Assembly: GCA_965234725.1 (NCBI GenBank) | Contig: CBDDUX010000021.1 | Location: 1 to 53,510 of the forward strand | DNA: 53,510 bases | DNA from: Thermoplasmatota archaeon | Lineage (GTDB): Archaea; Thermoplasmatota; Penumbrarchaeia; Penumbrarchaeales; Penumbrarchaeaceae | Direction: 5' to 3' | Shown: one piece after another, positions 4,739 to 32,600 of the stretch | How positions within the stretch are numbered: position 1 is the stretch's first letter | Layout: each line of letters opens with the position of its first letter | Program-made: the position numbers and the translations under genes | Notes under the pieces: generated by a model | Told to the model about the DNA's origin: nothing | What the model saw: only the letters and a program-made list of their open reading frames with translations | The model's database searches: none

Positions 4739-4755
4739 TCCCATACCTCCTGGAT

Positions 4756-9591: not shown

Positions 9592-9595
9592 TCCA

Positions 9596-12500: not shown

Positions 12501-13522
12501 CCTTTGGAAGTAAAGATCCCCAAACTGCCCTGTGATTGAAAATAGACGGCCCCATGGATCGTATCTCCCGTTCCGGTGGCAACCATATCCTTCATCACCA
12601 TGTTAGAGGTGGCAACCGTTTCAGGAGAAGAGGACCAGCTGGCACCTCTATCGGTAGAAACGATTTTCCTTATTGAAAGAGGGTTGCTTGTTTCAAAAAA
12701 TAAAAGTGAGATCACCTCGTTATTATTCTCCACCGTCCTTACGGGGGCAATGACCCCCATATTCCTCCCAAAGATCATTTCGGAGCTCCAGGTGCCGTTG
12801 GAATAGACGTAATACCTTGGCTGAACGATACCATCTGTTTTCATGAAAAAGAGCATCCTGTCCTTTACGCCTATCATCTTGGTTTGACTAACCGGACCGT
12901 TTAAGGTAAACGATTCATAATTGACCGAGGATATATTCCAGCAGTTTTGAAGCGGTGTGACCCTGACCATCGCATCGATATTCGAAGGGCCGTTCTTATC
13001 AATAATTCCAAAGAATAATTTCTCCTCGTGAACGAGGATCTCGACATTTCCCCTTGTCGTTCCATATGAGCGATCCACTTCGATATGGTTCCAGGAACTT
13101 CCGTCATCGGTGGAGATGGCAAGCATATAGGCCATGCCCTGCATGGGAGATGTTATGGTTTTCACATATCCCAACAATGTAAATCGACCCTCCACAACAC
13201 AGGTCCTGGCCGAGTGGATCTCCCTAAGGGATAATTCGCTGACTTCGAACCTGGATCTCTCTTTATAAGAATACGGATCAAGCTCAAGGTATGATCCCTC
13301 ACGCAACCTCAGTCCCTTATGTGAATCGATCCAGTCCCCTTCTCCTACATCGAGAACAGTACATGTTCTTGGAAGATCCATGTCAACAGAACGATAACTA
13401 ACGGGAGAATTCTGGGACAAAGGATACTGTTCTCTGCTTTCCGAGCTCATGACCGGAGGTAAAAGTAACAATAGGATCAATGAAAAAATTACCAACATTC
13501 TTCCATACACTACCTTGAACAT
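9596..13522 (-). CDS. Cell-surface protein: Asp-box propeller region, Ig/cadherin-like repeats, PKD-like domain and TM anchor
   Basis: Signal peptide; Asp-boxes STDDGSSW, STDRGASW; cadherin-like motifs (LEEDS...FFDADGDHL, VDPMNDVP, VVNVNKPP); TM WLLYTISGLIPLLIGIGLGILIIFLV-RRKK. Confidence 0.85.
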   Translation of the reverse strand: MFKVVYGRMLVIFSLILLLLLPPVMSSESREQYPLSQNSPVSYRSVDMDLPRTCTVLDVGEGDWIDSHKGLRLREGSYLELDPYSYKERSRFEVSELSLREIHSARTCVVEGRFTLLGYVKTITSPMQGMAYMLAISTDDGSSWNHIEVDRSYGTTRGNVEILVHEEKLFFGIIDKNGPSNIDAMVRVTPLQNCWNISSVNYESFTLNGPVSQTKMIGVKDRMLFFMKTDGIVQPRYYVYSNGTWSSEMIFGRNMGVIAPVRTVENNNEVISLLFFETSNPLSIRKIVSTDRGASWSSSPETVATSNMVMKDMVATGTGDTIHGAVYFQSQGSLGIFTSKGSLQVDIREISQVISNGMDPIDCEMTISSHRDDVLILFEDGNGRISTARSSDSGLNYELDSFGAGTVHSPCLSDDMKMSVFMNGTQIQIGTYERSQRGSLKTGIITVPALHSWDQMGLSLGGVENEDSFEFIVRDHDGMRIYPSVGSFSVHSSPNGSLGCMSCQHVVDLTGLNDAGTPDSVIFEFLFDSISGEYPFLFSIILNYTISYPFSLSVDNELYIASKKDVRVTSLGMELISGSFSGYGVFGPFKVEKTPPHHLWAEGKFLTNEDYCKFSIHSSNMSIVPGYEAEASDVLNTEGGLTPINWGSRTLANLPDSIDEFYVKVRILKTGTLSPRLTRIKLGSSTPPSIDSMEIEETEIWRTEGTLLRIEASDMEEDPVYLSLDVEVKMPGVDSWTKDTISEPLWNNGFWEVRVSTGTSSMVGDYSFRATPVDSAGEVGETVEMETKLIVRNNRPLPPLVSVTPQSPLTGGQIATSMVLPGEDVETPEEQLRYNIYIFHNGDLYIYDDNLTTPDRSYEDPVLNKGEEWEVHITTWDGVEESQPFIAIFEVGNSAPQIIPLTGPLRLEEDSGPVTYDPTEWFFDADGDHLTFEVNGPDEISPSVVTGSIQLDPEEDVNGEFWLWIMATDGILNSTANITVMVDPMNDVPEWISPPDISVEEGMGIFIDIGAEDERDGESVHVQMINGIPGMLEGENIFSYPNGSFYFIPDNAMVGKHTILFSVTDGIDTLQDSFNITVVNVNKPPSRPVTSMENEMLVVTEGDPIKMTAYSDDEDLIWGDVISYQWISSLEGGIGEGSNVTFSLGVGIHEITVTASDSENAQNSTTFTMEVLGKPADGGSVMRTWLLYTISGLIPLLIGIGLGILIIFLVRRKKEDNDGKEEVPPQVQSPGTTGSTSAGSLPGGAENLLGTASVRRELPPMPDLPVTSGKNEQEDNVRKIPQEQNEEAANVPLGDNSGENDILKGPGV

Positions 13523-16330: not shown

Positions 16331-19078
16331 GTGATACCTTTGGATATCAGGGAGCTTGTTAGGTTGAAGAAGGGGATAGGCGGCCTGGAACCGCCTTACA
16401 ACATCGGCATCCTGCTTGGAAGGGAGAAGGCCGGAAAGGACCACATTGGTATCATCTACACCATGAACGGAGAATTGAAGATCAAATGGAAGAACCTCCG
16501 GGAAGCCTGGGGAAGGATATACCAGGGCGATAAAAAGGACACAGGGTCCATGAAAATGTTCCTCAAGCAAGCTTTGGATGAGGAAAGGAAAGGATTGATA
16601 CTTACTCTGGAGGCGGAAGAGATCATTGAAAAGGTTTCGATAAAGGACCTCTGGAATTCGATCATGGAAAAAAGAGAGAAATGGCGATCGGATGGGATTA
16701 ATACTCCAGATTTTTGCGAAAATGTGATATTAAACGCGGAAATGATCGGCAATCTGTTCTATGAACCCAAGATACTGGAAAAAAAACACATATCAGCAGT
16801 GGCAAAGGTCCTTTCTTCCTGTGATGATCCATCCCAACCTTACTTCCACAGGGTGGATATCGATGGGAAGCGTTCGTATCTGCCCTATAAGAGAGAAACA
16901 CTGACCAATATCAAGGATCACATATACCGATTGGAAGATCTGAGAAGTATCTTCATTCAGGTAACGGAAGAAGAGACAGGAGGTGGCCAAACAATCCGCA
17001 GTGCCCATTCTCGGTTCGAAGACCCGAGGGATGCTGTTCTTTCCCAGACCCAGGAATTGGAGATGGATATTATCTGTAATTGGGCAAAAATGTTCCTGGA
17101 AAAGGGTAAATGGATGTATACTGGCGATGGAGGTTTCGGGCTAGGGGGAACACCCGCAGGGAGAATGGAGAATTTCGATCTGGAAAGGTACATCTCCGAT
17201 CTCTCCCACCATATATCGAACACAGGTGGAAGGGATCTTGCCTCCGATCTGGTTGGAATGCTTTTAAAACTCGAAAAGATCAGTTGGATGAAAGCATCAG
17301 AACTGGTGGTCGATTATAATCTGGGTTCCGGAAAGAGGAAGTTCCACAGAGATTTCCCCCAGCATGTCCTGAGGAAAGCAAAGGGACTTAGCGGCAGTGT
17401 TGGAGAAGAGGAGATCAAGGGGAGAAAGGACCTGAGAGATGTGGAAACATATACCATTGATCCTCCGGATGCAAAGGACTTCGATGATGCCGTCTCGATC
17501 TCGACGGATGGCGAGGGTAATTGGGAGGTATGGGTCCATATAGCAGACGTGAGCCATTATGTCAGGTCCGGTGACCTGATCGATGATGAGGCAAGATACA
17601 GGGGCACATCGGTCTATCTTCCCACCGGCGTCATTCCAATGCTTCCTCCGGAGCTCTCCGAGGAACTCTGTTCCCTCAAAGAGGGAGTGGATAGATTGAC
17701 AGTAAGCACAATGGTCAGATTGTCCCCTGAGATGAATATCATTTCATTTGACCATTACAGAAGTGTCATCAAGGTCGATAGGAACCTTTCTTACGATTCG
17801 GTTGACAGATACATCAATGATGGGGTGGAACCTTTCATCTCGCTTCAGAAGGTATCAGAAGGTCTGAGATCAACGATACCAAGGCTGGACCTCGATATCC
17901 CCGAGAGAAGGGTTCGATTCACGGGTGATAACGAGATCGATGTGTTCTTAAAAAGACAGACAAAGGCCATGGTCATGATCGAACAGTTGATGGTGATCAC
18001 CAATGAAGCTGCGGCCTCTACTATCGGTTGTAACGGGCTCTCTGTCCCATACAGGGTCCACCCTCTTCCGGATTCATCCTCGATCGAGAAATTCAATGCC
18101 ACATGCAGATCATTGGGCCTCAACATCGAGCTTCCAATGGATCGGATCGAGGAAGATGTTCCCAAGGATGGAGGTGAAAGGACCTCCCCGGAGGAGGATC
18201 AAATGTTGAGATCACTTCTATCCGGTGGGAAGGTCAGTTTCGGGGCCTTGAACTTGGAATTCTCTGAAATGGAAGAAGAGGACGAGAAGGATGGACTAAA
18301 TGCCGGAGGGGAAGATATTGGAAATAAAAAGGCTGTCCCAAAGGAGGCAATAGACAGGGCAGTGGAGGCATTCAACAAGGCCCTGGAAGAGATCGGTTCC
18401 TTAGGGGATATGGACCGGGAGAACCTCCTTAAATTGCGTATGCTTAGGACAATGCCCCGGGCATTCTATTCCGAGGACAACATTGGTCATTTCGGTCTTG
18501 GATCCGAATGTTACTGCCATTTCACATCACCTATCAGAAGATACCCGGACATCCTGGCACATCGGGCGATCACATCCATCATCGAGAGAAATGGAGGTCC
18601 CGGATCGGGATCGGACCCACCCAGCAGGGAAGAGATATCCGGGATGATGGAGCATGTCAATGAAATGACGGGGGATGCGGAAGAATGGGAAAGGGAAATG
18701 GTCGATGTCGCCCTTGCAACTAGAACCTTCATGAACCAAGAGTTCAGGAACAGATCCCATGGTTCTATTGTGAGGTCCCTCACTCCATCAATGATCTTTC
18801 TGGGATTAGATGATGGTGTCACAGAAGGCCGGATACCAATAAGAACACTTTCACCACTAAGGCTGCATATCGATGACAGTGAAACATCGGTGATCGCATC
18901 ATTACAGGGAAACGAGGATGCTGATGTAAAAGACCCGATCATGGCAGATCTTCTGCAAAATGAAGGATCGGATATTATCCTCTTCAAGATCGGTGATAGA
19001 AGGGCCTGCAAGGTCCACTCGATCTCCATAGCTCAGGGGAAGATCGACCTGTCCTTCACCGCTGGTCATGAAAATTGA
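16331..19078 (+). CDS. RNB-domain 3'-5' exoribonuclease (RNase R/II family) with a long atypical N-terminus
   Basis: Catalytic motif TIDPPDAKDFDDA, VHIADVSHYV, RGTSVYLP, HFTSPIRRYPD, C-terminal S1-like region. Confidence 0.9.
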   Translation: MIPLDIRELVRLKKGIGGLEPPYNIGILLGREKAGKDHIGIIYTMNGELKIKWKNLREAWGRIYQGDKKDTGSMKMFLKQALDEERKGLILTLEAEEIIEKVSIKDLWNSIMEKREKWRSDGINTPDFCENVILNAEMIGNLFYEPKILEKKHISAVAKVLSSCDDPSQPYFHRVDIDGKRSYLPYKRETLTNIKDHIYRLEDLRSIFIQVTEEETGGGQTIRSAHSRFEDPRDAVLSQTQELEMDIICNWAKMFLEKGKWMYTGDGGFGLGGTPAGRMENFDLERYISDLSHHISNTGGRDLASDLVGMLLKLEKISWMKASELVVDYNLGSGKRKFHRDFPQHVLRKAKGLSGSVGEEEIKGRKDLRDVETYTIDPPDAKDFDDAVSISTDGEGNWEVWVHIADVSHYVRSGDLIDDEARYRGTSVYLPTGVIPMLPPELSEELCSLKEGVDRLTVSTMVRLSPEMNIISFDHYRSVIKVDRNLSYDSVDRYINDGVEPFISLQKVSEGLRSTIPRLDLDIPERRVRFTGDNEIDVFLKRQTKAMVMIEQLMVITNEAAASTIGCNGLSVPYRVHPLPDSSSIEKFNATCRSLGLNIELPMDRIEEDVPKDGGERTSPEEDQMLRSLLSGGKVSFGALNLEFSEMEEEDEKDGLNAGGEDIGNKKAVPKEAIDRAVEAFNKALEEIGSLGDMDRENLLKLRMLRTMPRAFYSEDNIGHFGLGSECYCHFTSPIRRYPDILAHRAITSIIERNGGPGSGSDPPSREEISGMMEHVNEMTGDAEEWEREMVDVALATRTFMNQEFRNRSHGSIVRSLTPSMIFLGLDDGVTEGRIPIRTLSPLRLHIDDSETSVIASLQGNEDADVKDPIMADLLQNEGSDIILFKIGDRRACKVHSISIAQGKIDLSFTAGHEN

Positions 19079-19153
19079 TTTTTCTATCATCTGAGAATAT
19101 GAACGCATATATTTAATTGAAATGTACTCCTTGAGGTTATTTGCAGTCTGGTG

Positions 19154-19174
19154 GAACCTGTTTTTAAAAGGTTC
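19154..19174 (+). promoter_or_regulatory. Putative BRE/TATA promoter of the DnaA-like gene, flanked by a short inverted repeat
   Basis: GAACCT-GTTTTTAAA-AGGTTC, about 25-30 nt upstream of GTG 19193; similar to AACCTTTTTAAA upstream of cdc48. Confidence 0.45.
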
Positions 19175-19192
19175 TCAATGGGGGAATGATCC

Positions 19193-22100
19193 GTGATACT
19201 GCCGAAAGGAACTATTGATTTCTCTAAGAAAGGTGGAGAAGACTCCATGGCGAAGGTCATAGAGAACATCTCTGAGGAAAAGAGAACTGGTTACATCCTG
19301 ATAATGGGTAAATTACTCAATCTGGATGGCGAAAACGATGACGTTACAGCTCAGCTTCTTTTCCAGGATGGCGAACCTAAATTGTGCGAGGCGGTGGTGA
19401 ACAAATCTTCCCATAAAGGCCCCGATGGTGTCAATTATCTTCTCCGTTCCATGATGAATCCGGATAATGAGATCGAAATGCACTCGAAGATCGATGTGGG
19501 ACCCCCATTGGCTTTCTTCAAGGAATGTAAGTTCGAACCATCCGATCTAAACATAGAAGCTTTCAAGAAATTGATAAAAGAGGAAGAAGAGGAAAGTAAG
19601 CACAGAGATGAGGAGAGAAGACGGAAGGAAGAACAAGAACAGAAGATAAGGGAAGAAGTAGAAGGCTGGACTAAATCCGGATTCAAGATAGAAGGATTCC
19701 CGGAGATCATGGAGTCCTCACATGAAGAGATAGTGAAATGGTATGAGGACCTCTCCTCCAACATCACAGAGATCAGATCGATACTGGAATGGGCCAGGAA
19801 GATCGAGGAGGTGGAGGTGAGCGACCTCAGGGACCAACTGGTAGAAAAGGCAAAGGTCCCTCAGAACATAGACGTCATAAGAAAGGTCAAGGGAGATCTC
19901 GAATCGAATCTTTCTGATATAAATGAGAAGAGAAAAGAGATGGAGAAATGGGTGAACCTCTGGAGAGATGAGGGATACAATACCGAAAGGATCGAAGAGA
20001 GTCTGAATGGAGACCTCGTGACCGCATGGAACAAACTGACCCATTTCATGGACGATATTCAGAAATTGAAGGATCATAAGGAGGAACTTGAAACCCTGAA
20101 GAAGGATGATCCGGGGGATCATTTCGGATCAGAAACAAGAGAGATAGATTTCCTTTTGAACGATCCTTTAGAGATCGAGAATATTGAAAGGCTGATCACC
20201 GAACTGAAGGAGACGATGAAGAAAGAGAACAATGAAAAGAGCAGCCTCATGAAAATTGTAAAGGAATGGGAGGAGAAGGGATACGATCTCTCAGGTCTGG
20301 AAAGTCATTTGGATAAGAGGCTTGATGCTTTCAGGACTGAGCAATTGGAAGTACTGAAGAACATAAGCAGAATGGAATCCATCAACGGTGAACTGGAAGA
20401 TCTTGACCGCAGGGACCTGGCAGATGAGATAGATGCTCTTAAGGAAGGGGTGAAGGACCCCTACTCGATATCCGATTACGAAACGGAACTTAAAGCCCTG
20501 AAGGAAAAGGTCGATGTCATTAATTCCAGGAGGAAGGCACTCTCCGAAGAAATGGAGAAGCTTTCTGAAGAGGGATACAACGTTGAAAGCATTCGAAATG
20601 AATTGGACTCCCCCATTGAAGGGCTGGAATCTCGGTTCGAGAGTTTCAAGGCCGATGTGAAGAAACTGAAGGCTATTGAGAAAAGGATATCCGATATGGA
20701 TCACAGGTGGCTTGAAGAAGCCTTTGAAGAACTCAAACCTCTACTCAAGGAGGTCTCGAAGATCGATGAGATAACGACCTCACTGGACGATCTCCAAAAT
20801 AAGATTGATAACAGGGAAAGGGAAAGGGCCCGTATCAGGAAGGATATGGAAGACTGGAAGGAGGAAGGTTTCATCGTCTCTGGGTTGGAAGAGGCCATCG
20901 AAGATGACATGGAGGTATTCACCACTGCTCACAAGGACCTTGGACAGAATATTACCAGGTCAAAGGATGAGCTCGCCTCACTGAGGACCATGAACGTGAA
21001 GTTCTTCCCTGCAGAAGCACAAGAGATAGAAAAGGCCCTTTATGATCCAAAACTGCTTGATCGGACCGTAGAGAACCTTGAGAGTTTCAAGAAGAAGGTA
21101 AGTGAAGACTGGAACCTCAGGAATAGACTCAGAGGAAGATTGGATGAGTTAAAGGAGAAGAGATGGGACATTGGAGATCTTGAATCTCTGATGGAATCAT
21201 CCCCCGACCTTATAAGAGAAAGGACCGATGACCTTGAAAGCAGGGTCTCGGACCTTGAAGGAGCGATCGAGAAGATCGAATCCTGGGATCCACTTGAGAG
21301 TAATTGGCTCTCAGAAGGGATCTCCGAGCTGAGAGAGCACCTTAGAAGACTGGAAGATAGGGATGGGGCTATGGAACACTTCCAAGATCTTGAGGAGAAG
21401 ATCAACAATAACAAGAAGGTGAGGACTGAGATCATTTCCCAGATGGAAGACTGGAAAGAAGCAGGTTATGTCACCCACACGGCAATGGATAAGGCGGAAT
21501 CTGTGATAGAGGAATTGGAGGAGGTTTTCAATGGATTGAAGACCAACATCACGAAGCTCGAGGAGCTCCAGAAACGCTTCGATTCACTCAAGATAGACCA
21601 TTTCAGATCAGAGGCAGAGGAGATCGAGTTCAAGTTGAACGATCCCTACCTTGTGGATGAGATCGTGTCGGAAATGGAGATACTGGAAGAGAAGATCAAC
21701 AAAGACGAGGCGAAAAGGGATGAATTCAGGACCAGGATCAAGGACTTCCTGAAAGAAGGATTCATGGCAGCAAGAAACCTGGAAAGCGTCTTGGAAGAGG
21801 ATATCTCAATCGTGGAGCTGGAGTTCAGGAATTTCGAAAAAGAGGTTCAATTCTTCAAAAAGTACATGGAATCCACCGGATTTGTGTTCCCAAATGATCG
21901 AAAAGAGGAGAAAGTGGACACTGAAAAAAATGTCCCGACCGAAGACACGAATAATGTACCTCCTGAAGAACCGGATAAGATCGAAGAAGAAGCAGTGGAC
22001 CCCAACGGTGTTGAATTGAAAACGGATGGTATGGATTTTTCCAGCTTCATCGTAGGTTCACCCAATGAGATAGCATATACAGCCGCATCTGATGTTGCCT

Positions 22101-22948
22101 CTGATCCTGGAAATACGTACAACCCACTCCTTATTCTGGGAGATGAAGGTGTTGGGAAGACGCATCTGCTACAGGCGATCTCAGTTAAGATCAAGGAAGA
22201 GAAGCCGAACCTGAACATCCTTTCCATTACCGGTGAGGAATTCATTGAGGAAATGAAGAAACACCGGGATAGTGGAAAGATGGAGGATTTCAGGGATCGT
22301 TTCAGGAACTCCGATATCCTTGTATTGGACGACCTCCACATCCTAAAGGCCTCCGAAGAGATCCAGGATATGTTCATCAACATTCTCAATGGATTCCTGG
22401 ACAAGGACAAACAGGTGGTCCTCTCGTCAGAGAGAGAGATCAAATCCATACCTAAGCTGGTGGATCAGATCAGGGCAAGATTGGATAAAGGGGTCAGCGT
22501 CGATCTGGAAGGGACAACACCTGACCTCAATAAGAAGATCATTGATATGATCGCAGGGGATAAGATCCCTGAGGAAGTCTCTGATTACATTTCAACCCAA
22601 CTTGGGGATGTAAGAAAGGTCAAGATAGCCGTTGAAGAACTACTGGCATCCGGGGATATGGAAGGAACTGAACTGGAAAAGACCAAAGAGATCGTGGACA
22701 GGATCACAGGAGACCGGGGCCATAGAAAGCTCACAGAAGCTCTTGAGGACACACTGGAAAGTATGAAAGAGAAGAGAAATGAAGTTGTTCTCTGTACAAA
22801 CTGCAATGAGGAGATCCCTGCAGATTCCACCAATTGCCCGAATTGCGGTGCCATCTTCGAGGAAGTTGAGATGAAAGAATGCCCCGTCTGTAAGAAACAT
22901 GTCGAAATCGAGGCTGCGAGCTGCTCCAACTGCGGTATGGACTTCTGA
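19193..22948 (+). CDS. Multidomain protein: DUF2226-like N-domain, ~98-aa helical repeats, DnaA-type AAA+ ATPase domain and double zinc ribbon
   Basis: FSSFIVGSPNEIAY...YNPLLILGDEGVGKTHLLQAI (Walker A), DILVLDDL (Walker B), QVVLSSER, IRARL, DVRKV; C-terminal CTNC/CPNC/CPVC/CSNC. Confidence 0.88.
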   Translation: MILPKGTIDFSKKGGEDSMAKVIENISEEKRTGYILIMGKLLNLDGENDDVTAQLLFQDGEPKLCEAVVNKSSHKGPDGVNYLLRSMMNPDNEIEMHSKIDVGPPLAFFKECKFEPSDLNIEAFKKLIKEEEEESKHRDEERRRKEEQEQKIREEVEGWTKSGFKIEGFPEIMESSHEEIVKWYEDLSSNITEIRSILEWARKIEEVEVSDLRDQLVEKAKVPQNIDVIRKVKGDLESNLSDINEKRKEMEKWVNLWRDEGYNTERIEESLNGDLVTAWNKLTHFMDDIQKLKDHKEELETLKKDDPGDHFGSETREIDFLLNDPLEIENIERLITELKETMKKENNEKSSLMKIVKEWEEKGYDLSGLESHLDKRLDAFRTEQLEVLKNISRMESINGELEDLDRRDLADEIDALKEGVKDPYSISDYETELKALKEKVDVINSRRKALSEEMEKLSEEGYNVESIRNELDSPIEGLESRFESFKADVKKLKAIEKRISDMDHRWLEEAFEELKPLLKEVSKIDEITTSLDDLQNKIDNRERERARIRKDMEDWKEEGFIVSGLEEAIEDDMEVFTTAHKDLGQNITRSKDELASLRTMNVKFFPAEAQEIEKALYDPKLLDRTVENLESFKKKVSEDWNLRNRLRGRLDELKEKRWDIGDLESLMESSPDLIRERTDDLESRVSDLEGAIEKIESWDPLESNWLSEGISELREHLRRLEDRDGAMEHFQDLEEKINNNKKVRTEIISQMEDWKEAGYVTHTAMDKAESVIEELEEVFNGLKTNITKLEELQKRFDSLKIDHFRSEAEEIEFKLNDPYLVDEIVSEMEILEEKINKDEAKRDEFRTRIKDFLKEGFMAARNLESVLEEDISIVELEFRNFEKEVQFFKKYMESTGFVFPNDRKEEKVDTEKNVPTEDTNNVPPEEPDKIEEEAVDPNGVELKTDGMDFSSFIVGSPNEIAYTAASDVASDPGNTYNPLLILGDEGVGKTHLLQAISVKIKEEKPNLNILSITGEEFIEEMKKHRDSGKMEDFRDRFRNSDILVLDDLHILKASEEIQDMFINILNGFLDKDKQVVLSSEREIKSIPKLVDQIRARLDKGVSVDLEGTTPDLNKKIIDMIAGDKIPEEVSDYISTQLGDVRKVKIAVEELLASGDMEGTELEKTKEIVDRITGDRGHRKLTEALEDTLESMKEKRNEVVLCTNCNEEIPADSTNCPNCGAIFEEVEMKECPVCKKHVEIEAASCSNCGMDF
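19640..21870 (+). repeat. Eight degenerate in-frame ~98-102-codon helical repeats
   Basis: W/L/F-x-x-x-G-Y/F anchors (one variant LKEKRW) at 19667, 19961, 20267, 20561, 20855, 21149, 21452, 21746; spacings 294, 306, 294, 294, 294, 303, 294 nt. Confidence 0.8.
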
Positions 22949-22963
22949 TGGGACCGGGCCAGA

Positions 22964-23602
22964 TCAACTTAGGTCGGGATCGTTCGCGAAGATGAGATAT
23001 ATATCTCCCTCCACCGCTTCTATTCGGATCTTCCCACTGCCGGGTTCATTATGGATCCCAAGTGTGCTACCCACCTCGATGACTCGTTCTTTTAGCTCCC
23101 ATTTCACTCCATCCATGGTAACCTTTGCTCTTTTTGACGCTGGAAGGACCGAAATGACAGGTTTATCTGTTGTTCCCTTGAACTCAGATCCCTCTCTTAT
23201 CAGTAGGACCTCATCTCCTTCCAGATGAAGTGTCGCAAGGATTCCCTCAGGGATGCAGTAAAGAAGATGAAAACTCGCAAGGATATGATCGGACCTTCCT
23301 CTCTTTCCACCGTAGATCTCTATCTGCTTGGGGTGTCTGGAGATCGCATTCATGACAGCAAGCTCCCCATCGGAAAGGTCCTTGTCTCTTTGATGGACCT
23401 CGATGGTTACACCTCTTCTTTCTAATTCGGACAGGACCGCCATATCAATAGAATCCATATCACCGATAACGATGTCCGCCCTACCACCAGCTGAAACAAG
23501 GGATGTGGCGCCACTGTCAGCACAGATGGTAATATCATCGTCTCGGATATCAAAAGGGGGCCTTCCTCCGGACAGTATGACAACACATCTGTTTCCCTTC
23601 AA
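22964..23602 (-). CDS. thiN: Thiamine diphosphokinase
   Basis: ICADSGA, IVIGDMDSI, DKDLSDGELA, GRSDHILAS, GSTLGIHNE. Start likely TTG 23602 (or GTG 23611) rather than 23677. Confidence 0.9.
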   Translation of the reverse strand: MKGNRCVVILSGGRPPFDIRDDDITICADSGATSLVSAGGRADIVIGDMDSIDMAVLSELERRGVTIEVHQRDKDLSDGELAVMNAISRHPKQIEIYGGKRGRSDHILASFHLLYCIPEGILATLHLEGDEVLLIREGSEFKGTTDKPVISVLPASKRAKVTMDGVKWELKERVIEVGSTLGIHNEPGSGKIRIEAVEGDIYLIFANDPDLS

Positions 23603-23695
23603 AGTAGTCACTTCCCTGATCAATACTGATCGATGGTAAAAATAGATAGCGAGGGGGCATCGATAATACCCCCTCAACTAATAGGTCCCTTTCCC

Positions 23696-26600
23696 TTACT
23701 TATTGTGAAGGTGGGGGAAGTCAGACTCAGGGAAGTCTTCTTCTACTTCCTTCTTCTTGCTCAGGACTTTAACGATAAGTGCCATTGCAACCAGGGCGAT
23801 TATTCCAGCAATGATGACCAGTACGAGGTAAAGGACGGTGTTGTCATCCTTCTCTTCCTCGCTATCTGCAACGGTGGGGTCCCTTTCGGTTGCACCTTCG
23901 AGATATTCCTGAAGGTTTGTGTCCCCATCCTCATCTGGGTCCTCGTTCTGGTCCCCGGGTGTCAGAGGATCGAACCCGAACCTTACTTCATATCCATCGG
24001 GTAGTCCGTCATCATCGGAATCAGGATCCCTTGGATCGGTACCCAGTTCGTACTCCCTGTAGTTTGTAAGACCGTCACCATCATAATCCCGGTTCCTGTC
24101 GTTGACGTTCTTATCAAGACCGTTCTTGTCCTCCCAGACATCAGGCATACCGTCACCGTCAGTGTCGAATTCCGATAACTTCTCAAGGACGATAACATTG
24201 AAGTGGACAGAATCGGAGTTCCTCGCCGAGTCATACACAGTCAATGTGAAGGAGTAATTACCCGAAGTCTGGAAGAAGTATGTTATCTCCTTTCCAACAC
24301 GGACAATATCATCTCCCAGAGGACCATCTATGTTCCAAACCCATTCGGTCACACCAACATTATCGGTGGATCCCATATCCCTAAGAACATAGGAATCGCC
24401 CTCCAGAAGTGTCATGTTACCTGGTCCCATGGCGATCGGAGATAGAAGGTCCTTGATATCGACGAACCTGGTAACCAATGCATCGTTGTCCTCAGCATCC
24501 ACCACTGAAAGATAGACAGTGATGTTGCCTACGGCACCTCCGAGGTCAACCATGAGTATGGGTCCGGTGGCGGTCATTACTGAACTGTCCGGAAGGATAA
24601 TGGTCCATGCATACAGGACTATCCCGACATTATCGTAGGAACCGCTGGCATTGCCATAGAGGAGTTCATGGTTCCCCAATACTGAAGGCATGTTAAGAAC
24701 TATAACAGGGGCATCGGCATCCCGAATATTGATTCTCGTTGAAACTTCAACAGCCGGGTTCACACCATCTGAGATCAGGAGGGTTACATTGTAGACACCT
24801 ACAGCATCGAAAACATAGGTGACTTCCATACCGTCCATGACCTCATCCATTATAGTCCAGGTGTAGCTGATTATGCCCACGTTATCTGTTGACATGTACG
24901 CAGAGAATGCGACCTCCTCATGCTGGAATGCTTCGGAGGGCCCTACTATCACAGGCACTGGGGGTTCATCATCCACAATATCGATGGTAAATGGATCTGA
25001 TTCAACAGTGTTCCCGGACGTGTCAAGGACCCTGAAATAGAATTCAAAGCCGTCACCATTATCGTTCGGGACCATCATGGAGAACATGAATGTGTTGCCA
25101 TCCCTCTCCATCAACTTTGTCATTGGGTCCATTCCAGTGAATGTATAGATCAATTCCACCCTGCCAATACCGATATTATCGGTTGCATTGACCTTGAACA
25201 TGAATTCCTCACCGGTAGCAGCCGTTGTATCCGAGAGGAAATCAACAAAGGCAGGCATATCATTGTCCAATACCTCAACCTGGAATGTGACCGTTCTGGC
25301 AGAATTGCCACCTAGGTCATAGGCCTCGATCCAGAAGTTAAGGGGATCCAGAGAGTGCGGAACATCCACCTCGAAGGAGAACGTCCCTGAGGATCCGGTA
25401 CCATCCATGAAGGGGACGGTTCCTGGCTGGGTCGTACCAAAGAAGTAGTACAACCTCGACCCGGAAACGCTTACATCGTCGCTGACATCAACGGATATGC
25501 CATAGGTATCTCCGGTATAGGCCTTCGGTTCGAAAACTGGTATACTAATGACAGGCTCGCTGTTATCGAGAATGTCGACTACCTGCTTATTGGCATCGGT
25601 TTCAAAGTAGTTGAAAGCCGGTCCGATATCCGTTGCATCGAACCAGTATGTCATCGTTCCACTCATTACCGGAAGATCAAGCAGATATTTGTAGACATCA
25701 TTGGAAAGGATTTCCATAGGTATGGTCTGTTCTGCAGTGTTGAAACTGAAGTAATAGTGGAGGTTGACCTCCAAGACATCGATATTGTCCGATACGATCA
25801 CCCTGAATGGGAAGTTATCCTGTCCAGCTTCAGCGATCTTGGGAGTCATATCTCCATATATCTCTGGAAGATCGTTGTCCAACACAGTGATGGTTGACTC
25901 GGTTGTGATGAACTCATTATAGGATGTGTCCCAGATTATGAACTGGTAGACTATCTGTGCAAGTGTATCTTCGATGGTCTGAACAAGGAACCAATTATTG
26001 CTGGATCCACGGGTCATCTCTAGCATCTCGAACTGGTTACCGTCAACATAACCATAGGTGAGATAGACCTGCATCACGCCGACATTATCCACAGCATCCA
26101 TGGTGAAGTTCTTGGGATCTCCGGTGGTTGCAGTGGTTGTGGTCCTGTCCATTGCCATGGAGGGCAGATCATTGTCGTATACCATATGGGTGAATCCGGT
26201 CTCTTCCATCCAATTCCCGGCAAGGTCCACAGCTGTGATGTTGTAGGTCAGGATATCCAGGGAATTCAGATTGATATTGAAAGCAACGGAATCCCACACC
26301 GTATTGGTGGAATCGTATGTCAATGTCAGGTTCTGGGCATTGTCCCAGTCCTCCGCATAGGTCCAAAGGACATGGACTGCCACAACCTCAGGGCCATCGA
26401 TGTTATCGTCGATCTCGATGGTGAAATGGAATGTGTCACCAGTTGTTGCCAGCATCGATTGGACATCTTCCACGGTGGGGACATCATTATCCTCGATGCT
26501 TACCTCCACAGTGGAGCTGGGGCCTGATTCCCACCAGTTGCCATCAACGTCTCTGAAGTTATAGTAGTAGAAGAGGTGGTCAAGGGAATCTATGGGTATT

Positions 26601-29600
26601 GTAATGGTTCCCGTTGTAATCTGATCATCACCAAGTCCGTCTCCTTCAATATCAAAAACTGTCAGGGACTTTTCCGATCCTGTTCCAAACCAGTAATTAA
26701 CCTCCACATGATCAATACCCACATTATCATTCAATGTAAAATTGAACAGGAATGTGTCGCCGGTCATTCCAAGTGTGTCAGAGTTGTCTGATACGAATGT
26801 AGGTGCTGTGTCATCAAAGACTGTCACATAGAAGACAGGGCTCGTTCCGACGTTCAGGTAATTATCTGTTGCCTCGAAGTAATACATCATCTGGGAGAAG
26901 TGGTCTGGGACCGTCAGGTCGTAGTAGAATGTGTCGAAGACAAGGTTGCTCATGGTCACCGAGGAATAGACCGCATCGGTAACATCCTTGTAATAGAGCT
27001 GAACGGTGGCTGCGTTGTAAGCAATGTTGTCATCCACCTTTACGGTGATCGCCAGAAGGTCTCCTGTTTCAGGGGTGTTTGGAAGGATATCAAAATCGGA
27101 GAAAGTTGGAGCATCGTTGTCATCCACATCCTGAGAATCGGTGATCACAACAGTGTTGCCTGATGTATCCTTGATGGTTATGGTATAGTAGACCTGTGCT
27201 ATGGAGTCATCCAGGTTTATTGTTAGACTGTAGGTGCCGTCTCCGTCATACTCCATATCGGTGGAACCGCCCAGATTGTTGTGCGACCAGGTAATAGTAA
27301 CAGAATCAACCGCCCAGTTATCGGATATTGCGACGTCGAAAGTATATGAATCCACTGTGGTTCCTGTTCCACAGTTATCCGTGTAGGTAGGATCATCGTT
27401 GTCTATGACCGAAAGGGTCACCTGGGAGGTCATGTTCGTGAATCCGTTATCATCTTCTGCAACAATGTAGTAGATGAACTGGTTGGAGCCACTGTAAATA
27501 TTGAACTCTATGTCGTAGGTATCACCGGTATTCTTGGTCATCTCGATGGTGTGCCAGGCCCCATCATCATTGTAATGTAGTGTGACCATTGCCACCTCTT
27601 GATCATCAGTGACATCTATTGTAACATTCACAGGATCCCCGGTTGTAAGAGTTCCGGGAGTCACAACAGGAGTTGACAGTTGAAGCACATTGACCCGGTA
27701 ATACACCGTATCAACCACCACCAGATGTCCGGCAGAATCATTAGCCGATAGGTTGTAATAGAAATGATCCGCCGAGGCAGGGATGGTTATGGTGAAGGTG
27801 AAGAAATCACCCACCTGGGAATACGTCATTAGGTCCGTGTATCCTGCAGTTGTGGTGTTGTCGAACTTGTACGACATCATCACATCTGTCAAACCTATGT
27901 TGTCTGTCCACTTGACAGTGACCTTCAATGTTCCACTTATAGGTCTTACAGGATCCATGGCAATATCCGAATAGACGGGTTTATCATTGTCTGAAACCGT
28001 TACTGTCATTATTGAGCTCGTTACAGCATTCATTGAAGAATCGGTGACGGTCACCGTGTATGTCATACTGGTAACCGCATGGTCCAATGTAATCGTTGCA
28101 CTGTATGTTCCGTCACCATCATTGTTGAGGGTGGTGGTGGTCCCAAGCGTTCCATGGCTCCATGTGACCTTGACCGAATCAAGGGCGACATTATCACTCG
28201 CAGCTACATCGAAAGTGAAGCTGTCCCCTGTGGTTCCTGTCGTTCCAGTGCTATCTGTGAATGTCGGGTCATCATCGTCAATTATTGCCTGTGTGTAAGT
28301 ATCGGACTCATTTGTGAAACCATTATCATCCTTTGCTTCGAAATAGAAATCCACAGACAATGTACCATCTATTACACCCTCGAAGTAGTATGTATCTCCA
28401 GAGTAGTACATCATTTCTTCTGAATACCAACCATCCCCTGGATTGAACCAGAAGGTGACGTTCATCACTGCATCATTGTCCGTCACATCAATAGTTACGT
28501 TTACAGAGTCACCGGTAGCTGGCGATGAAGGAGTGGCAGTCGGCAATCCGAACATGGGAAGATTTACCATGGAATACTCGGTCGGAGAGGTGACCAGATT
28601 GTCTGCAGCATCAGATGCGGAGACATTGAAGTAAATATGGTCACAGGTTGAGGGGATGGTCACAGTAAAGGTGAAGGTATCTCCAACCTGTGTGTAGGTC
28701 GTGAGGTTCGTGTAACCAGATACATTGTCCAGCCTGTACTGGAGCATGACATTCGTCAGACCGATATTATCCGTCCAGTCCACACTGACATCCAGTGTTC
28801 CAGTCATCGGGTCCTCGGGATCTATCATAATATTGTCATACTCAGGAGCATCGTTGTCGCTGACAGTTACAGTTGCAGTTGAACTGGTAACTGAATTGGT
28901 TGATGTATCAGTAACAGTGATGTCATAGGTCATGCTGGTAACCGCATGGTCCAGGGTGATCGTTGCACTGTATGTCCCGTCACCATCATCATCGAGGGTA
29001 GTGGTGGTCCCAAGGGTCCCATGGCTCCAGGTTACCGTGACAGTGTCGATCTCAATGTTATCCTCAGCAGACACATCGAAAGTAAAGTCATCTCCAGTTG
29101 TTCCTGAGGTAGGAGAGTTGTCAGTGTAGGTCGGAGGATCGTTGTCACCTGTAGTTACGGTTTCCTCATCTGTCTCATTCTCGAAACCGTTGTCATCCAC
29201 CGCCATCACATAGTATTTCAGCTCCTCCGAGGATTCGTTCACGGTGATATCAGCAGTATAGGTATCTCCGGAAAGTGAGGTCATGTTCATGACCATCCAG
29301 TCACCCATATCGTTGTAATAAAGGAACAAACCAGTCAATACATCGTTATCTGTAACATCTATTGAGAAAGTCACAGTATCTCCTGTCTTGGGTTCTGTTG
29401 GATTCAGTGTAATCGTCCCGAGCTGTGGCAGGTTGACCTCACTGTAATAGTTTGAAGATACTACCTGATTGTTGGATGTGTCAGTGGCCGTGACATTGAA
29501 ATATACATGGTCACAGGAGGAAGGTATGGTCAATGTGAAGGTGAACGTGTCACCGACCTGCACATAGGTTGAAAGTGTGGTATAATCGGAAACATTGTCC

Positions 29601-32600
29601 AATCTGTATTCAAGTTCCACTGCCTGCAGCCCAATGTTATCAGTCCAATCCACACTGATCTCCAGAGTGCCTGTTATTGGATCCTCAGGGGTCCAATCAA
29701 CGTTGGAGAACTCAGGATCATCATTGTCCGTCACGGTGACGGTCATAAGAGAACCAGTTGCAGTGTTCATGGAGCTGTCTGTAACGGTGATGGTATATGT
29801 CAGAGACCCCAGGGAGTCATCGAGGTCTATATCAAGGCTCCAGGTTCCATCAGAATCATCATCGAGAGATTCGGTTCCGCCTAATAATCCATGGGACCAT
29901 GTGACCTCGACATCATCAACTTCCACATTGTCATCCGTAGATATGTCGAATGTGAACGTATCTCCGGTCGTCCCTGTTGTAGGTGACCTGTCGGTGAATT
30001 TGGGGTCATCATTGTCTGTAACAACGACATCCCAGGTATCTGTCTCGTTCTCGAATGTGTTGTCATCCATTACCCAGAAATAGTATTCCAGGAGAAGTCC
30101 ACCGTCCGGAACGATATCAGCAGCATACAGGTCATTCATGTAGTATGTCATTGGTGTGGACTTCCAGGTTCCGTCATCTCTGTAATAGAGGATCACACTT
30201 GCGACCATGTCATTGTCCTTGACCTCGAATGTGATATTGAGGTTCTCTCCGGTCGTTGGAGATGCGGGAGTCAATGTCGCAGAGGATCCAAGCATTGGGA
30301 GGTTGACCTCAGTGTAATAAGTAGAGGTCGTTACCAAGTTGGAAGCGGAATCGGTGGCTGTGAAATAATAGTAGAGATGATCACAGGTCTGCGGGAGAAA
30401 CAGCATATATGTATAGGTATCTCCCACCTGGGAATAGGTTGTCCAGGACATATAGGAAGATGTGTTGTCTATCCTGAAATGTAGGGTTGGATTCATGACT
30501 GCGATGTTATCCACCCAGTCTACGCTCAGGTAGACCGCTCCGGTTATCGGCTCTTCCGGGTCCATATCGATATTGGAGTATTTCGGTGCGTCATTATCGC
30601 TCAGGGAAACCAACATGGAACTACCGGTCACAGAGTTCAACGAACCATCCTCTACGGTGACTGTATAGGTCATATCGGATAGGTCGTTGTCAAGTGTCAC
30701 TGTTCCTGACCAGGTATCATCGAAATTGCTGGAAAGGTATTTGACACCACCAAGTATGCCGTGGGTCCAGGTTATATAAACTGAGGAAACTCCAATGTTA
30801 TCGGACGTTGAAACATAGAACTTGAAGGAGTCGCCTGTAGTCCCGGAAGTGGGGGAGTTGTCAGTAAAGGCCGGATTATCATCATCTGAGAGGATGAAGG
30901 ACCACATTGGTGACTTTGTCATGTAGCCAAGGTCGTCATTAGCAGTGTAATAGTACTGTACCATGAATGATCCATCCACGGTGAAGTTTGCCCAGAACAG
31001 CTCACCAACGCCTGGTGTCATCATCATGGATTTCCAGGTTCCGTCATCGTTATAGTAGAGCATCACGGAATCCTCGTCCAGGTCCCCGTTGTCAGTGACA
31101 TTAATGGTAAGATTGACCCAGCTTCCGGTGGTCGGGACCATCGGGAGGACCGTCGGGTCGTAGAAGAACGGTTTATTGACCTGTGCGGACATGAGCGGAG
31201 TGGCCACTGAATTCCCTGCCAGGTCGGTTGCTCCGGATAGATAATAGATCGTGTCCACTGCATCTGTTATGTTGATGGACCAGGTGTATGTATCGCCCAC
31301 TACTGAAAGATTGGTCTCCTCAACGAAGGGGGAAGATCTATCGAACCGATATACCAATGCGGTTGAATCTATTACCACATTATCTGTCCAGTCAATGCTT
31401 ATCTTCAATACACCGGTCCTTGGCTCGGTTGGATCGAGCATGATATTCCTATATTGTGGTGCGGTCCCGTCTATAAGGTTCATTGTTTTGGGGGTCGTTG
31501 CCAGCCAGTTGTCATTGAGGTCCTTTGCCGTGAAGAGATAGGTCATCGGGTCCACGGATTTGGGCAGTGTGATAGTATATTCGTAGGGTTCGAGAAGCGT
31601 GATCGAGGCATTCGTGTGAGGGCCTGACCCGAACCAGTACTCTACGTCCAACTCGACTATACCGGTATTATCAGAGATCACCGGTCTGAAGGTGAAATCA
31701 TTGTTGGAATAAGCCAGAGGATCGGTGTCGTCGCTTATGATCACCGGTGCTTCATCATCCGTAAATCCCATACCGAATTTTGTAACAACACCATCATAAG
31801 TATATGAAGAACCGCTTGGATAATAGGGTCTTGTGGTCATGTATGCCCCAGGGGTTACCGGATATTCTCCATAACTTGGAGTATATGTAGCATGATATCT
31901 TGAATAACCGGTAAAATAGATATTATTCAAGTGGTCCGAATCAAGTGCATACATGTAATCATAATATCCACCGCCGATGTAGGAAGAATAACCAATGGAG
32001 GAACCGTCTGCACTCAGACCAAAGAAAACGCCGTCGTAATATCTGGATTGTGATGATTGAACAGCATTCAACACCGGGAAATCACTCGAATAGGTCCTTG
32101 CTGCCACATAGACCTCGCCTTCAGTCCCGACTTCAAGGCTGTCTCCGTCCATGTATTCGCTGTTTGTCCCTCCCATGAATGTTGACCAGACCAATCCACT
32201 TCCTGCAGCATTGAATTTCGTTACGAATAAGTCATATGAAGTACCCGCTCTTGATTCCTGGTACGCCCCTGATGTTGTTGGAAATTCGTTTCCGCTGCTG
32301 TAAGAAGATGAATAACGTGTATAACCCCCTACCACAGCTTGTCCATCATCATCAACACCGATTGCATATCCGTAATCGTAATAACCTCCTCCCAGCAGTG
32401 TTGAATATACTGCATCTCCATCCGAATCCAATTTGACACAGAATGCCTCTTCATAGGTATTCTTTACCGAAGTCTGATAAGCTCCTGAGGTTGTTGGAAA
32501 TGCAGATGAATCATAATCTGTTCTTCCCACAACATATGTGTAATCATTCTTATCAATAGCAACACCGTAACAATAATCACCTGAAGATCCGCTCCCAAGG

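Follow-up and report, generated by a model that had tools for sequence, protein, structure and literature searches.

DnaA is the textbook bacterial initiator of replication, and its ATPase is viewed as an engine that melts DNA at oriC. Hda, a stand-alone paralogue of DnaA domain III, acts via an arginine-finger contact and not by binding DNA boxes. The same Bac_DnaA ATPase occurs in a family of DnaA/Hda proteins without domain IV from bacteria and metagenomes (P0013, P0014, P0034 and P0100), which includes tandem double-ATPase forms; two named members are bacterial. Among structural proteins, tandem helical repeats of ~100 aa are found in EzrA (PDB 4uy3) and in spectrin and dystrophin.

The gene described here lies in a 53,510-nucleotide stretch of archaeal DNA, hereafter the window, and encodes a protein in which a DnaA-type ATPase is placed C-terminal to a head and rod of ~900 aa and N-terminal to zinc ribbons. 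The core and lid of this ATPase align end to end with domain III of the bacterial DnaA chains 8bv3 and 8btg (B. subtilis), 2z4r (T. maritima), and 1l8q, 2hcb and 3r8f (A. aeolicus), with E-values from 2e-36 to 9e-28, and it shares with DnaA the Walker A and B motifs, the box VII Arg, sensor II and an equal Walker spacing. In contrast to DnaA, the rod protein lacks domain I, the domain IV HTH and the reading of DnaA boxes, resides in an archaeal host with Orc1/Cdc6, falls under the TIGR00362 cut-off, and carries a module that is dispensable in its orthologues. The domain-IV-less proteins have no head, rod or double zinc ribbon, and the architecture of Hda is entirely different. EzrA is among the weak fold matches of the rod, whose repeats are predicted to form long antiparallel helices; it has a transmembrane anchor and no ATPase, and the rod has no sequence-family match.

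Anatomy of the rod protein

The gene (19193..22948, + strand, stop included) is one open frame of 1251 aa in the ORF list of the window. Its GTG start is fixed by the N-terminus M-I-L-P-K-G...GGE, which is kept in the orthologues. The upstream intergenic region (19079..19192, +), read directly, contains TATA-like stretches rich in A/T and, 8 nt 5' of the GTG, a G-rich patch. A small contig from an RNA library begins at 19160. Three small RNA-library contigs map onto the gene, a weak hint that it may be transcribed. Since independent contigs of another study bridge both of its ends, the gene is not a chimera or an assembly artefact. The preliminary description had allowed for a bacterial or chimeric contig at this place; this is not the case, as judged from these bridging contigs, the TYW1 and CDC48 genes that provide an archaeal context in the window, and the two Orc1/Cdc6 genes of the genome. 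The records of the relatives are titled as Thermoplasmatota MAGs.

The head (aa 1-127; 19193..19573, +), delimited by AlphaFold, profile and conservation data, is predicted to adopt an alpha/beta fold of the order beta-alpha-beta4-alpha-beta (pLDDT 88), and its invariant residues are L3, P4, G6, G14, G15, G33, Y34, G46, F57, G60, L64 and P104. With a head profile, the other long-form proteins that have a head are recovered at E-values no higher than 1e-23, and the domain is found in 31 of the 37 genomes of the class, usually in a single copy per genome. A likeness to DUF2226 had been proposed for it, and language-model feature similarity gave the only hint in the same direction (0.87, rank 5, below the lead threshold of the tool). 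This identity is not supported: the DUF2226 profile PF09987 matched neither the head alone (E<=10) nor anything in the whole genome (E<=0.01), while the control in M. jannaschii was positive. A fold search with the head model found no significant match among solved structures (best Z 5.5). The head is a family-specific domain not seen before, without a Pfam model. Among the sequence observations of the preliminary description, those on the frame, motifs, AAA+ module, rod, zinc ribbon and archaeal context thus stand, and only the DUF2226-like head is not confirmed.

The rod (aa 128-904; 19574..21904, +), previously outlined as a repeat region of ~750 aa, resolves into eight helical repeats with a period of 98-102 aa, placed in register and marked by the signature W-x-E-E-G-Y...L-E: R1 (aa 128-226), R2 (227-328), R3 (329-426), R4 (427-524), R5 (525-622), R6 (623-723), R7 (724-821) and R8 (822-904). 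The mean pairwise identity of the repeats is just 19%, and the AlphaFold model predicts R1 and R2 as long antiparallel helices. The length of the rod is constant: in 26 of 27 proteins, 897-955 aa separate the head start from the ATPase start, and this holds even where identity falls to ~25-30%. Assuming ~5 nm for each repeat, its length would come to ~40 nm. Foldseek found no solved fold for the rod model at E<=1e-3, and both the best helical match (Z 7.0) and EzrA (Z 5.9, rmsd 4.9, 122 aligned residues) lie below the stated noise level of the tool for helical repeats. Because the fold searches with rod and head gave no significant match, we use the term 'spectrin-like' as a description only.

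An acidic, proline-rich linker follows (aa 905-945; 21905..22027, +; E 22%, D 13%, P 11%), which is the least conserved part of the protein, with a mean identity to orthologues of 0.25. Beyond the ATPase, a short segment defined from the alignment (aa 1176-1199; 22718..22789, +) connects the lid to a double zinc ribbon (aa 1200-1251; 22790..22945, +). The latter has four CxxC motifs, at positions 1201, 1215, 1230 and 1244, and passes the PF12773 (DZR) cut-off of 27.3 with 30.0 bits for the whole protein and 34.2 bits for the isolated C-terminus (Pfam span aa 1201-1248), in agreement with the earlier view that a double zinc ribbon stands in the place of domain IV. Of 12 orthologues, 10 keep the cysteines and the remaining two do not have the domain.

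The DnaA-type ATPase and the initiator question

The AAA+ core, or domain IIIa (aa 946-1104; 22028..22504, +), was delimited by PF00308, PDB matches and a motif audit, and the lid, or domain IIIb (aa 1105-1175; 22505..22717, +), by alignment to the DnaA lid in PDB chains and TIGR00362. Bac_DnaA (PF00308) matches aa 948-1104 (22034-22504) with E 2.4e-44 and 151.8 bits, which fits the domain III previously placed at ~22031-22720 once the lid is included. The core contains Walker A (G983-H991), Walker B (D1046/D1047), the sensor-I region (S1079-R1081) and the box VII Arg (R1096), and the lid contains the sensor-II Arg (R1141). All six motifs quoted earlier (FSSFIVGSPN, YNPL, GDEGVGKT, LDD, IRARL and DVRK) are present. 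The spacing from Walker A to Walker B equals that of B. subtilis DnaA, i.e. the initiator-specific insertion is present.

Helicase-loader identity was rejected, as DnaA models and structures score far better than those of DnaC/IstB: the IstB/DnaC family PF01695 reaches 34 bits, NF038214 48.6 bits against a cut-off of 200, and the PDB match to DnaC/DnaI E ~1e-5, compared with E 2e-36 for the best PDB matches, the DnaA chains 8bv3 and 8btg. By these comparisons the ATPase is a member of the DnaA clade rather than of DnaC/IstB.

An alternative or auxiliary initiator or regulator of replication, for example an Hda-like one, would be in line with this membership in the DnaA/Hda clade, and one JGI family record does bear the name 'chromosomal replication initiator protein', as had been expected of automatic pipelines; other public family records read 'hypothetical' or 'zinc-ribbon domain-containing protein'. 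However, the rod protein stays below both equivalog cut-offs, with 190.5 bits against 343.9 for TIGR00362, of which only profile positions 68-339 of 437 are covered, and 55.3 against 194.8 bits for the Hda model TIGR03420. In the profile comparison that had been suggested, Bac_DnaA matched and Bac_DnaA_C was not found: neither Bac_DnaA_C nor DnaA_N is among the Pfam families listed for the protein (25 of 27), a local domain IV profile detected none of the 42 archaeal ATPase-bearing frames, the window's protein included, and Bac_DnaA_C (PF08299) matched nowhere in the genome (completeness 97.65%), with a positive control in 10 bacteria. No canonical DnaA was found in the genome. It does carry two Orc1/Cdc6 genes on other contigs, both matched by Cdc6_C (PF09079), and Pfam did not find this winged helix in the rod protein. 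Since the genome has no domain IV and has two Orc1/Cdc6 genes, the conclusion that the rod protein is not an initiator of replication is well supported, as the preliminary description had held, and the ATPase module is absent from the orthologues of eight genomes. We regard an initiator or regulator function as very improbable.

The motif audit covered 31 ATPase-bearing rod proteins. The E. coli DnaA residues named as equivalents are presumptive. The Walker A Lys and the box VII Arg are retained in all 31 proteins and the Walker B Asp in 30, whereas the sensor-II Arg is retained in 21 and is absent from the closest non-identical relatives of the window's protein. The position that we take to be R281, presumably a residue stabilising the E. 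coli DnaA oligomer, is Gln in the window's protein and in 9 of the 31, and the sensor-I Asp is replaced by Glu in the window's protein. In the window's clade, Ser stands at the position of the 'B-motif' Lys, which we take to be the residue of B. subtilis DnaA that contacts ssDNA (K14 S9 Q3 R2 E2 among the rods overall). All ATPase-bearing orthologues keep an uninterrupted frame over 350 residues. This conservation indicates that the ATPase, where present, is under selection for nucleotide binding and a contact in trans, and the invariant ATP-binding residues together with the trans-acting Arg fit an ATP-dependent self-association.

The comparison with DnaA relatives proposed earlier was made with a 113-row tree, in which many rod ATPases cluster with domain-IV-less DnaA/Hda proteins. 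A 60-row cluster (SH-aLRT 90) unites the domain-IV-less forms, 13 of the 23 head-bearing rods and short archaeal forms; the 11-row subclade of the window lies outside it, and its branch is very long, at 2.03 changes per column. A single origin of the rod-type ATPases is compatible with the tree test (p-AU 0.80). Because of the long branch, the Gln at the presumed R281 position, the sensor-I Glu and the loss of the sensor-II Arg in relatives, the module may be changing its function or decaying.

Orthologues and the accessory module

The family is confined to uncultured Thermoplasmatota. In 11 related loci, the gene order is shared and the orthologue has 1181-1271 aa. Head and ATPase are joined in one frame in 17 genomes, versus 8 related genomes with complete rod-only frames that end after repeat 8 and have neither ATPase nor zinc ribbons; in the four of these eight for which synteny was examined, the rod-only proteins (909-979 aa) occupy the same slot among the RNB, X, TPK and giant-protein genes. 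The ATPase module is fully lost in three genera, the zinc ribbons alone are missing in one clade (L043/L044), and at one locus two rod genes stand in tandem, one copy with the ATPase and the other without. The complete rod-only orthologues, their synteny, the ribbon-less clade and the tandem pair lead us to regard the ATPase as accessory. As judged from these sequences, head and rod are the constant core of the family, and the DnaA module and the zinc ribbons are accessory to it. The preliminary description had put the DnaA module at the heart of the protein; neither this part of its interpretation nor the DUF2226 likeness is supported by the evidence, while its views on the initiator question and on mislabelling are retained.

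These losses also bear on the possibility that the protein is purely structural and that its ATPase is inherited, disused and heading for loss in this lineage. Besides the three genera without the module, the long branch and the sensor-II Arg that is gone in 10 of the 31 proteins, the closest non-identical relatives included, are as such a decay would predict. Neutral decay would not be expected, however, to leave the Walker A Lys and box VII Arg invariant and every ATPase-bearing frame intact, and the window's protein itself retains Walker A, Walker B, the box VII Arg and the sensor-II Arg; we hold a disused ATPase to be unlikely.

Gene neighbourhood and the giant surface protein

A survey of architectures and neighbours in Thermoplasmatota, as recommended earlier, yielded the rod-only forms; the neighbours are housekeeping genes that do not point to a partner. 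In 7 of 12 loci, and in 5 of 6 further annotated loci, the gene immediately upstream, in the same orientation, encodes an RNB exoribonuclease, and a Ski2-like helicase is encoded two genes away at one distant locus. These genes would suit a nucleic-acid tether. The ATPase would then form an ATP-dependent spiral on ssDNA or RNA, by analogy with DnaA domain III on ssDNA, further contacts with nucleic acid would come from the zinc ribbons, and the rod would link the nucleic acid to the target of the head; chromosome organisation and RNA decay are examples of processes that such a tether could serve. The retained domain III fold, the Walker spacing of B. subtilis DnaA and the presence of zinc ribbons point the same way. 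But the RNB adjacency is limited to one taxonomic family, where the entire neighbourhood is inherited, the presumed ssDNA-contacting Lys is Ser in the window's clade, and ATPase and ribbons are wholly absent from eight complete orthologues, which makes the tether rather unlikely in our estimate.

Two genes from the rod gene, an adhesin-like giant protein of 3442 aa is encoded. The rod, TPK and giant genes are adjacent in all eight loci of the first set where the contig reaches, and in four further loci. In family f1, the giant protein ends in a transmembrane helix and the tail motif K-x-P-V-E-E-[FL]P-E-x-x-[FY]PHLY-K in 10 of 10 complete C-termini, and this tail is conserved while the extracellular part diverges; in the present genome, the motif occurs in that single long frame only. 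These observations favor a membrane-skeleton anchor, with the head or rod binding the conserved cytoplasmic tail in the manner of dystrophin or spectrin. On the other hand, the rod and giant genes are convergent and do not form one operon, the order-level relatives (f2) have the adjacency yet not the tail, and at six distant rod or related loci neither a TPK gene nor a protein with the tail was found nearby. One 1032-aa ORF at these loci, located two genes away from a head-less ATPase protein, has no more than a weak local match to the giant family. The adjacency may thus represent inherited gene order, and we consider the anchor improbable.

The explanation that we prefer, at about even chances, is a cytoplasmic scaffold of fixed length that carries an accessory module for ATP-dependent self-association, its function being deduced from sequence. 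The core would be the N-terminal head on a fixed-length rod of eight ~98-aa helical repeats. The ATP-bound AAA+ module would most likely join copies head-to-tail via the box VII Arg, as DnaA domain III does, and in this way the C-termini of several rods would be gathered into one hub, with the zinc ribbon supplying an additional protein or nucleic-acid contact and the heads kept at a defined spacing from it. To the observed anatomy, conservation pattern, dispensable ATPase and missing initiator features, this scaffold model adds, by inference, self-association, a function as spacer or ruler, and the existence of a partner that the head binds.

The existing records that call such proteins 'chromosomal replication initiator' are misannotations. 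The DnaA engine has been kept, with its ATP-binding and trans-acting Arg residues intact, in archaea that use Orc1/Cdc6 to initiate replication; all of its DNA-addressing parts are gone, a fixed-length rod and a new head are fused to it, and several sister lineages have discarded it. The family is thus a natural test case for the action of a DnaA-type AAA+ module released from replication, and it indicates an undescribed large structural protein in widespread sediment archaea. It is a long shot, more doubtful even than the anchor, that with this protein a first component of an archaeal skeleton at the membrane or cortex has come to light, organised in the manner of dystrophin or spectrin: a ~40-nm ruler with its unique head on the conserved cytoplasmic adhesin tail and a DnaA engine, captured from bacteria, that clusters the rods in response to ATP. 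If true, the ATPase of a replication initiator would have found a second use in cell architecture, as a switch for polymerisation.

Anatomy and archaeal setting of the rod protein

The rod protein is encoded by a single open frame on the + strand (19193-22948, 1251 aa, as given by the ORF list), and the GTG codon at 19193 was taken as its start because the first residues, M-I-L-P-K-G-T...G-G-E, are kept in orthologues of other genomes. A G-rich patch is located 8 nt before this codon. The Bac_DnaA domain of Pfam is matched at aa 948-1104 (E 2.4e-44), which corresponds to window positions 22034-22504, and a genome-wide profile scan returned the same coordinates; with the lid included, the alignment to solved DnaA structures reaches about aa 1152-1167. 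The top PDB matches of the ATPase are the structures from B. subtilis (8bv3/8btg, E 2e-36), T. maritima (2z4r) and A. aeolicus (1l8q/2hcb), whereas the DnaC, DnaI and IstB structures are matched at E ~1e-5 only. All six motifs quoted in the preliminary description were found in the protein, and the two other modules that it had recognized, the double zinc ribbon and the repeat rod, were both borne out. The former is PF12773 with four CxxC at the C-terminus (aa 1201-1248), and the latter consists of eight in-register repeats between aa 128 and 904, with periods of 98-102 aa, that have the signature W-x-E-E-G-Y...L-E in common and a mean pairwise identity of only 19%.

The proposed DUF2226-like character of the head was not upheld. 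Pfam gives no DUF2226 match for the isolated head at E<=10, and the DUF2226 profile is silent across the whole genome, with a positive control in M. jannaschii. The sole hint of DUF2226, a feature score of 0.87 in a language-model protein atlas, is a lead only, as are the atlas scores of 0.90 to unnamed archaeal clusters and 0.85 to PatA_N for the head, and the score of 0.78 for the rod repeat. AlphaFold models of aa 1-330 (pLDDT 87.9) and aa 1-127 (pLDDT 88.2, pTM 0.83) predict an alpha/beta head, with the element order strand, helix, four strands, helix, strand, followed by long antiparallel helices. Foldseek retrieved nothing at E<=1e-3 for either the head-plus-two-repeats model or the head-alone model. 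In VIA-align, the best Z of the rod was 7.0, and the head was aligned with acetolactate decarboxylase (Z 5.5), the NucS N-domain (5.3) and PPC/DUF296 (4.9), all of these values being under the noise level of the tool. Neither the predicted head nor the predicted rod therefore significantly matches a solved structure, and for this reason 'spectrin-like' or 'EzrA-like' is used here as a label for the repeat pattern, with no established relationship.

The possibility of a bacterial or chimeric contig, raised in the preliminary description, was addressed through gene content and independent assemblies. TYW1, CDC48, CysRS and the like are encoded in the window, where searches for tRNAs and Rfam families were negative, and its genome of 3.54 Mb is 97.65% complete; the records of head relatives are titled as uncultured Thermoplasmatales, Thermoplasmata or Thermoplasmatota MAGs at 15/15 loci. 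Marine-sediment contigs of a separate study span the passage from the upstream RNB exoribonuclease gene into the rod gene (18162-21248; 85 differing letters over 3087 bases) and from the rod gene to the downstream TPK gene and giant adhesin-like gene (21246-24000; 68 over 2755), which amounts to about 97% identity. Since these independent contigs bridge both ends of the rod gene, the DnaA module is no chimeric join. The RNA library X13 yielded only four short contigs, and such libraries can contain DNA.

The same genome has two Orc1/Cdc6 genes, and profile searches for domain IV, the DnaA-box-reading HTH of bacterial DnaA (PF08299), found none in the whole genome, with positive controls in 10 bacteria. 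Domain IV is likewise found in 0/42 archaeal frames carrying the ATPase, so that the suggested comparison of Bac_DnaA with Bac_DnaA_C agreed with the initial view of an ATPase detached from its DNA-binding domain. A role in replication, the function that the DnaA match by itself might suggest, is thus very improbable.

Relatives of the ATPase and their distribution

Relatives were collected at two depths. A word-indexed collection contains seven other proteins of 1249-1267 aa, with the C-terminal part 52-86% identical to that of the window's protein, and one more distant relative of 1168 aa. With aa 908-1251 as query, an exhaustive search returned 14,993 matches at E<=1e-3 (264 of them at E<=1e-30), and the best 150 of the 14,993 fall into four groups. 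Distant proteins of the same layout are represented among these 150 by P0017, P0043, P0077, P0078 and P0120; no head was matched in P0096, which does carry ATPase and zinc ribbons, and P0068 is without the ribbons. The head profile recovers the remaining head-bearing long-form proteins at E 1e-23 or better, and a word-based search, which distant relatives may escape, turned up a single partial record and no stand-alone heads among proteins of 67-223 aa. The second group comprises short ATPase-plus-zinc-ribbon forms. Another consists of tandem double DnaA-type ATPase proteins of 580-700 aa without domain IV (P0013, P0014, P0021-P0024 and ~35 more in the best 150), a family of which we know no description; P0034, a single-domain relative in their tree cluster, is recorded under the bacterial name 'DnaA/Hda family protein'. 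The last group is canonical DnaA, in which 8/8 tested proteins (425-453 aa) have both Bac_DnaA and Bac_DnaA_C, and 6/8 have DnaA_N.

The ATPase is common in the class to which the window's genome belongs, with Bac_DnaA detected at E<=1e-20 in 32/37 genomes, often in several copies; in a sample of the phylum it was found in 31/301 genomes, 23 of these 31 being from the same class. Among the 23 other genomes of the window's taxonomic family (f1), Bac_DnaA is matched one or more times in 22, those with an ATPase-less rod protein being among them. A 438-aa paralogue in the window's own genome (G000, contig C3, L001:1054-2370, + strand) combines a coiled-coil/low-complexity N-terminus, Bac_DnaA (E 1e-57) and an acidic tail with no domain IV, and short forms of this kind make up one clade (support 92).

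In a tree of 113 rows, a single cluster of 60 rows (SH-aLRT 90) gathers most proteins lacking domain IV and stands separate from most canonical DnaA; the cluster includes at least two proteins with bacterial names on record. The first trees set the 11-row subclade of the window's protein, whose branch measures 2.03 changes per column, apart from the remaining rod proteins and beside another long row. We attribute this separate placement to long-branch attraction, since a 47-row tree nests the subclade inside its starred clade (98) of 15 rows, all of which are rod proteins, and an AU test does not reject one rod clade. Constraining all 20 rod rows together, a group named partly after a tree had been inspected, improved the likelihood by 14.8 units (p-AU 0.80), so that the data do not reject a single origin for the rod-type ATPase. 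The trees are unrooted, and therefore no direction of transfer is readable from them.

Public records name the family members 'hypothetical protein', 'zinc-ribbon domain-containing protein' and once 'chromosomal replication initiator protein'. A literature search of openly available full texts found no account of the rod-protein family, and archaeal DnaA-type proteins are unmentioned in those passages of PMC11880632 that deal with DnaA. The rod protein is a DnaA/Hda-clade AAA+ domain within an undescribed architecture.

Gene order, module content and rod length

The rod gene adjoins a TPK-like gene in 12/12 loci of the first set, and the giant surface-protein gene is next in line in the 8 loci whose contigs reach that far. 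The RNB nuclease gene is upstream in 7/12 loci, and an RNB (RNase II/R-type) gene lies upstream on the same strand throughout family f1; in the window's RNB protein (16331-19078), the N-terminal 365 aa (16331-17425, + strand) have no Pfam match. A creatininase gene is directly downstream in 5 loci and was not detected in the window's genome with the query used; it was set aside as a housekeeping enzyme.

The giant protein (3442-aa ORF, 23696-34024) ends in a TM helix and a short cytoplasmic tail (23696-23780, - strand), and its conserved tail would imply a cytoplasmic binding partner. The rod protein could be an anchor for this neighbor, given that the TM helix is followed by the tail K-x-P-V-E-E-[FL]P-E-x-x-[FY]PHLY-K in 10/10 complete C-termini of family f1 and that the giant protein is the one long frame of the window's genome with this motif; however, the corresponding protein of the f2 relatives is tail-less, and distant loci have neither the tail nor the adjacency. 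Such an anchor is quite improbable. Further giant genes are located at 34220-37501 and 49155-52313, and three successive very large ORFs (1526, 1611 and 1308 aa) occupy 179-13522 on the - strand, the third having Big_9, PKD and BNR-like matches; the window is therefore rich in giant surface proteins.

The DnaA-type ATPase is dispensable to the head-plus-rod protein. The same slot is occupied in four further genomes by a gene for a protein of 909-979 aa, with a stop codon just after repeat 8 and the TPK gene directly next, and these four proteins have neither the ATPase nor the zinc ribbons. Across the class, the head is present in 31/37 genomes: 8 genomes from three genera have complete rod-only frames, 17 genomes, the most distant families among them, have head and ATPase joined in one frame, and the other frames are cut at contig ends or split. 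Module content varies in other ways as well. The L043/L044 clade has the ATPase and no zinc ribbons, genome G003 has tandem rod genes (L061:5827-12866, - strand) for a 1335-aa protein that carries both ATPase and ribbons and a 1004-aa protein that carries the ribbons (four CxxC) and no ATPase, and a 761-aa frame (G002:C159:150-1445) has the ATPase almost directly after the head, with no long rod. By parsimony rather than by rooted reconstruction, we infer that the full form is ancestral and that the ATPase module was lost more than once. In genome G001, head-plus-rod and ATPase are located in two overlapping frames (L063:5170-10693, - strand), suggesting that the gene is split or frameshifted or was misassembled. 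At L057 (5998-7860, + strand), the orthologue frame ends mid-rod at 621 aa, with the contig running ~120 bases further; gene truncation or an error in sequencing may be the cause.

Unlike the module content, the length of the rod is fixed. The distance from the head start to the ATPase start is 897-955 residues in 26/27 distinct proteins (median 933), the lone outlier having 1198.

State of the ATPase residues and proposed role

A motif audit of 31 rod proteins, 18 short forms and 29 canonical DnaA distinguished two sets of positions, each of them held by 29/29 canonical DnaA. The Walker A Lys (K989), the Walker A Thr/Ser, the His after Walker A, the box VII Arg (R1096) and the Gly after box VII are present in 31/31 rod proteins, and the first and second Walker B Asp in 30/31 and 29/31, respectively. 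Substitutions are frequent at the sensor-I Asp (D20 E6 Q2 K1 N1; Glu in the window's protein), at the Arg four residues before R1096 (R19 Q9 K2 H1; Gln in the window's protein) and at the sensor-II Arg (21/31), which the window's protein keeps and its closest non-identical relatives have lost. The alignment position that we equate with the ssDNA-contact lysine of B. subtilis DnaA carries Ser throughout the clade of the window's protein; the equivalences to this lysine and to E. coli residues are presumed.

We read this pattern as selection for nucleotide binding and for the trans-acting arginine contact wherever the module exists, with hydrolysis control and ssDNA contact not uniformly conserved. 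A vestigial ATPase, as the substituted sensors and the dispensable module might suggest, is rather unlikely beside the invariant Walker A and box VII residues. A tether for nucleic acid is also unlikely, considering the Ser at the presumed ssDNA contact. A complex prediction for three ATPase copies (aa 940-1180) with ATP scored 0.00 in two runs and is uninformative either way.

At roughly even chances, we favor the rod protein as a fixed-length cytoplasmic scaffold. Its head would bind a partner, and the rod may act as a ruler. Where present, the DnaA/Hda-type module would gather the C-termini by ATP-dependent head-to-tail association via the box VII arginine, and the zinc ribbons would supply an additional contact.
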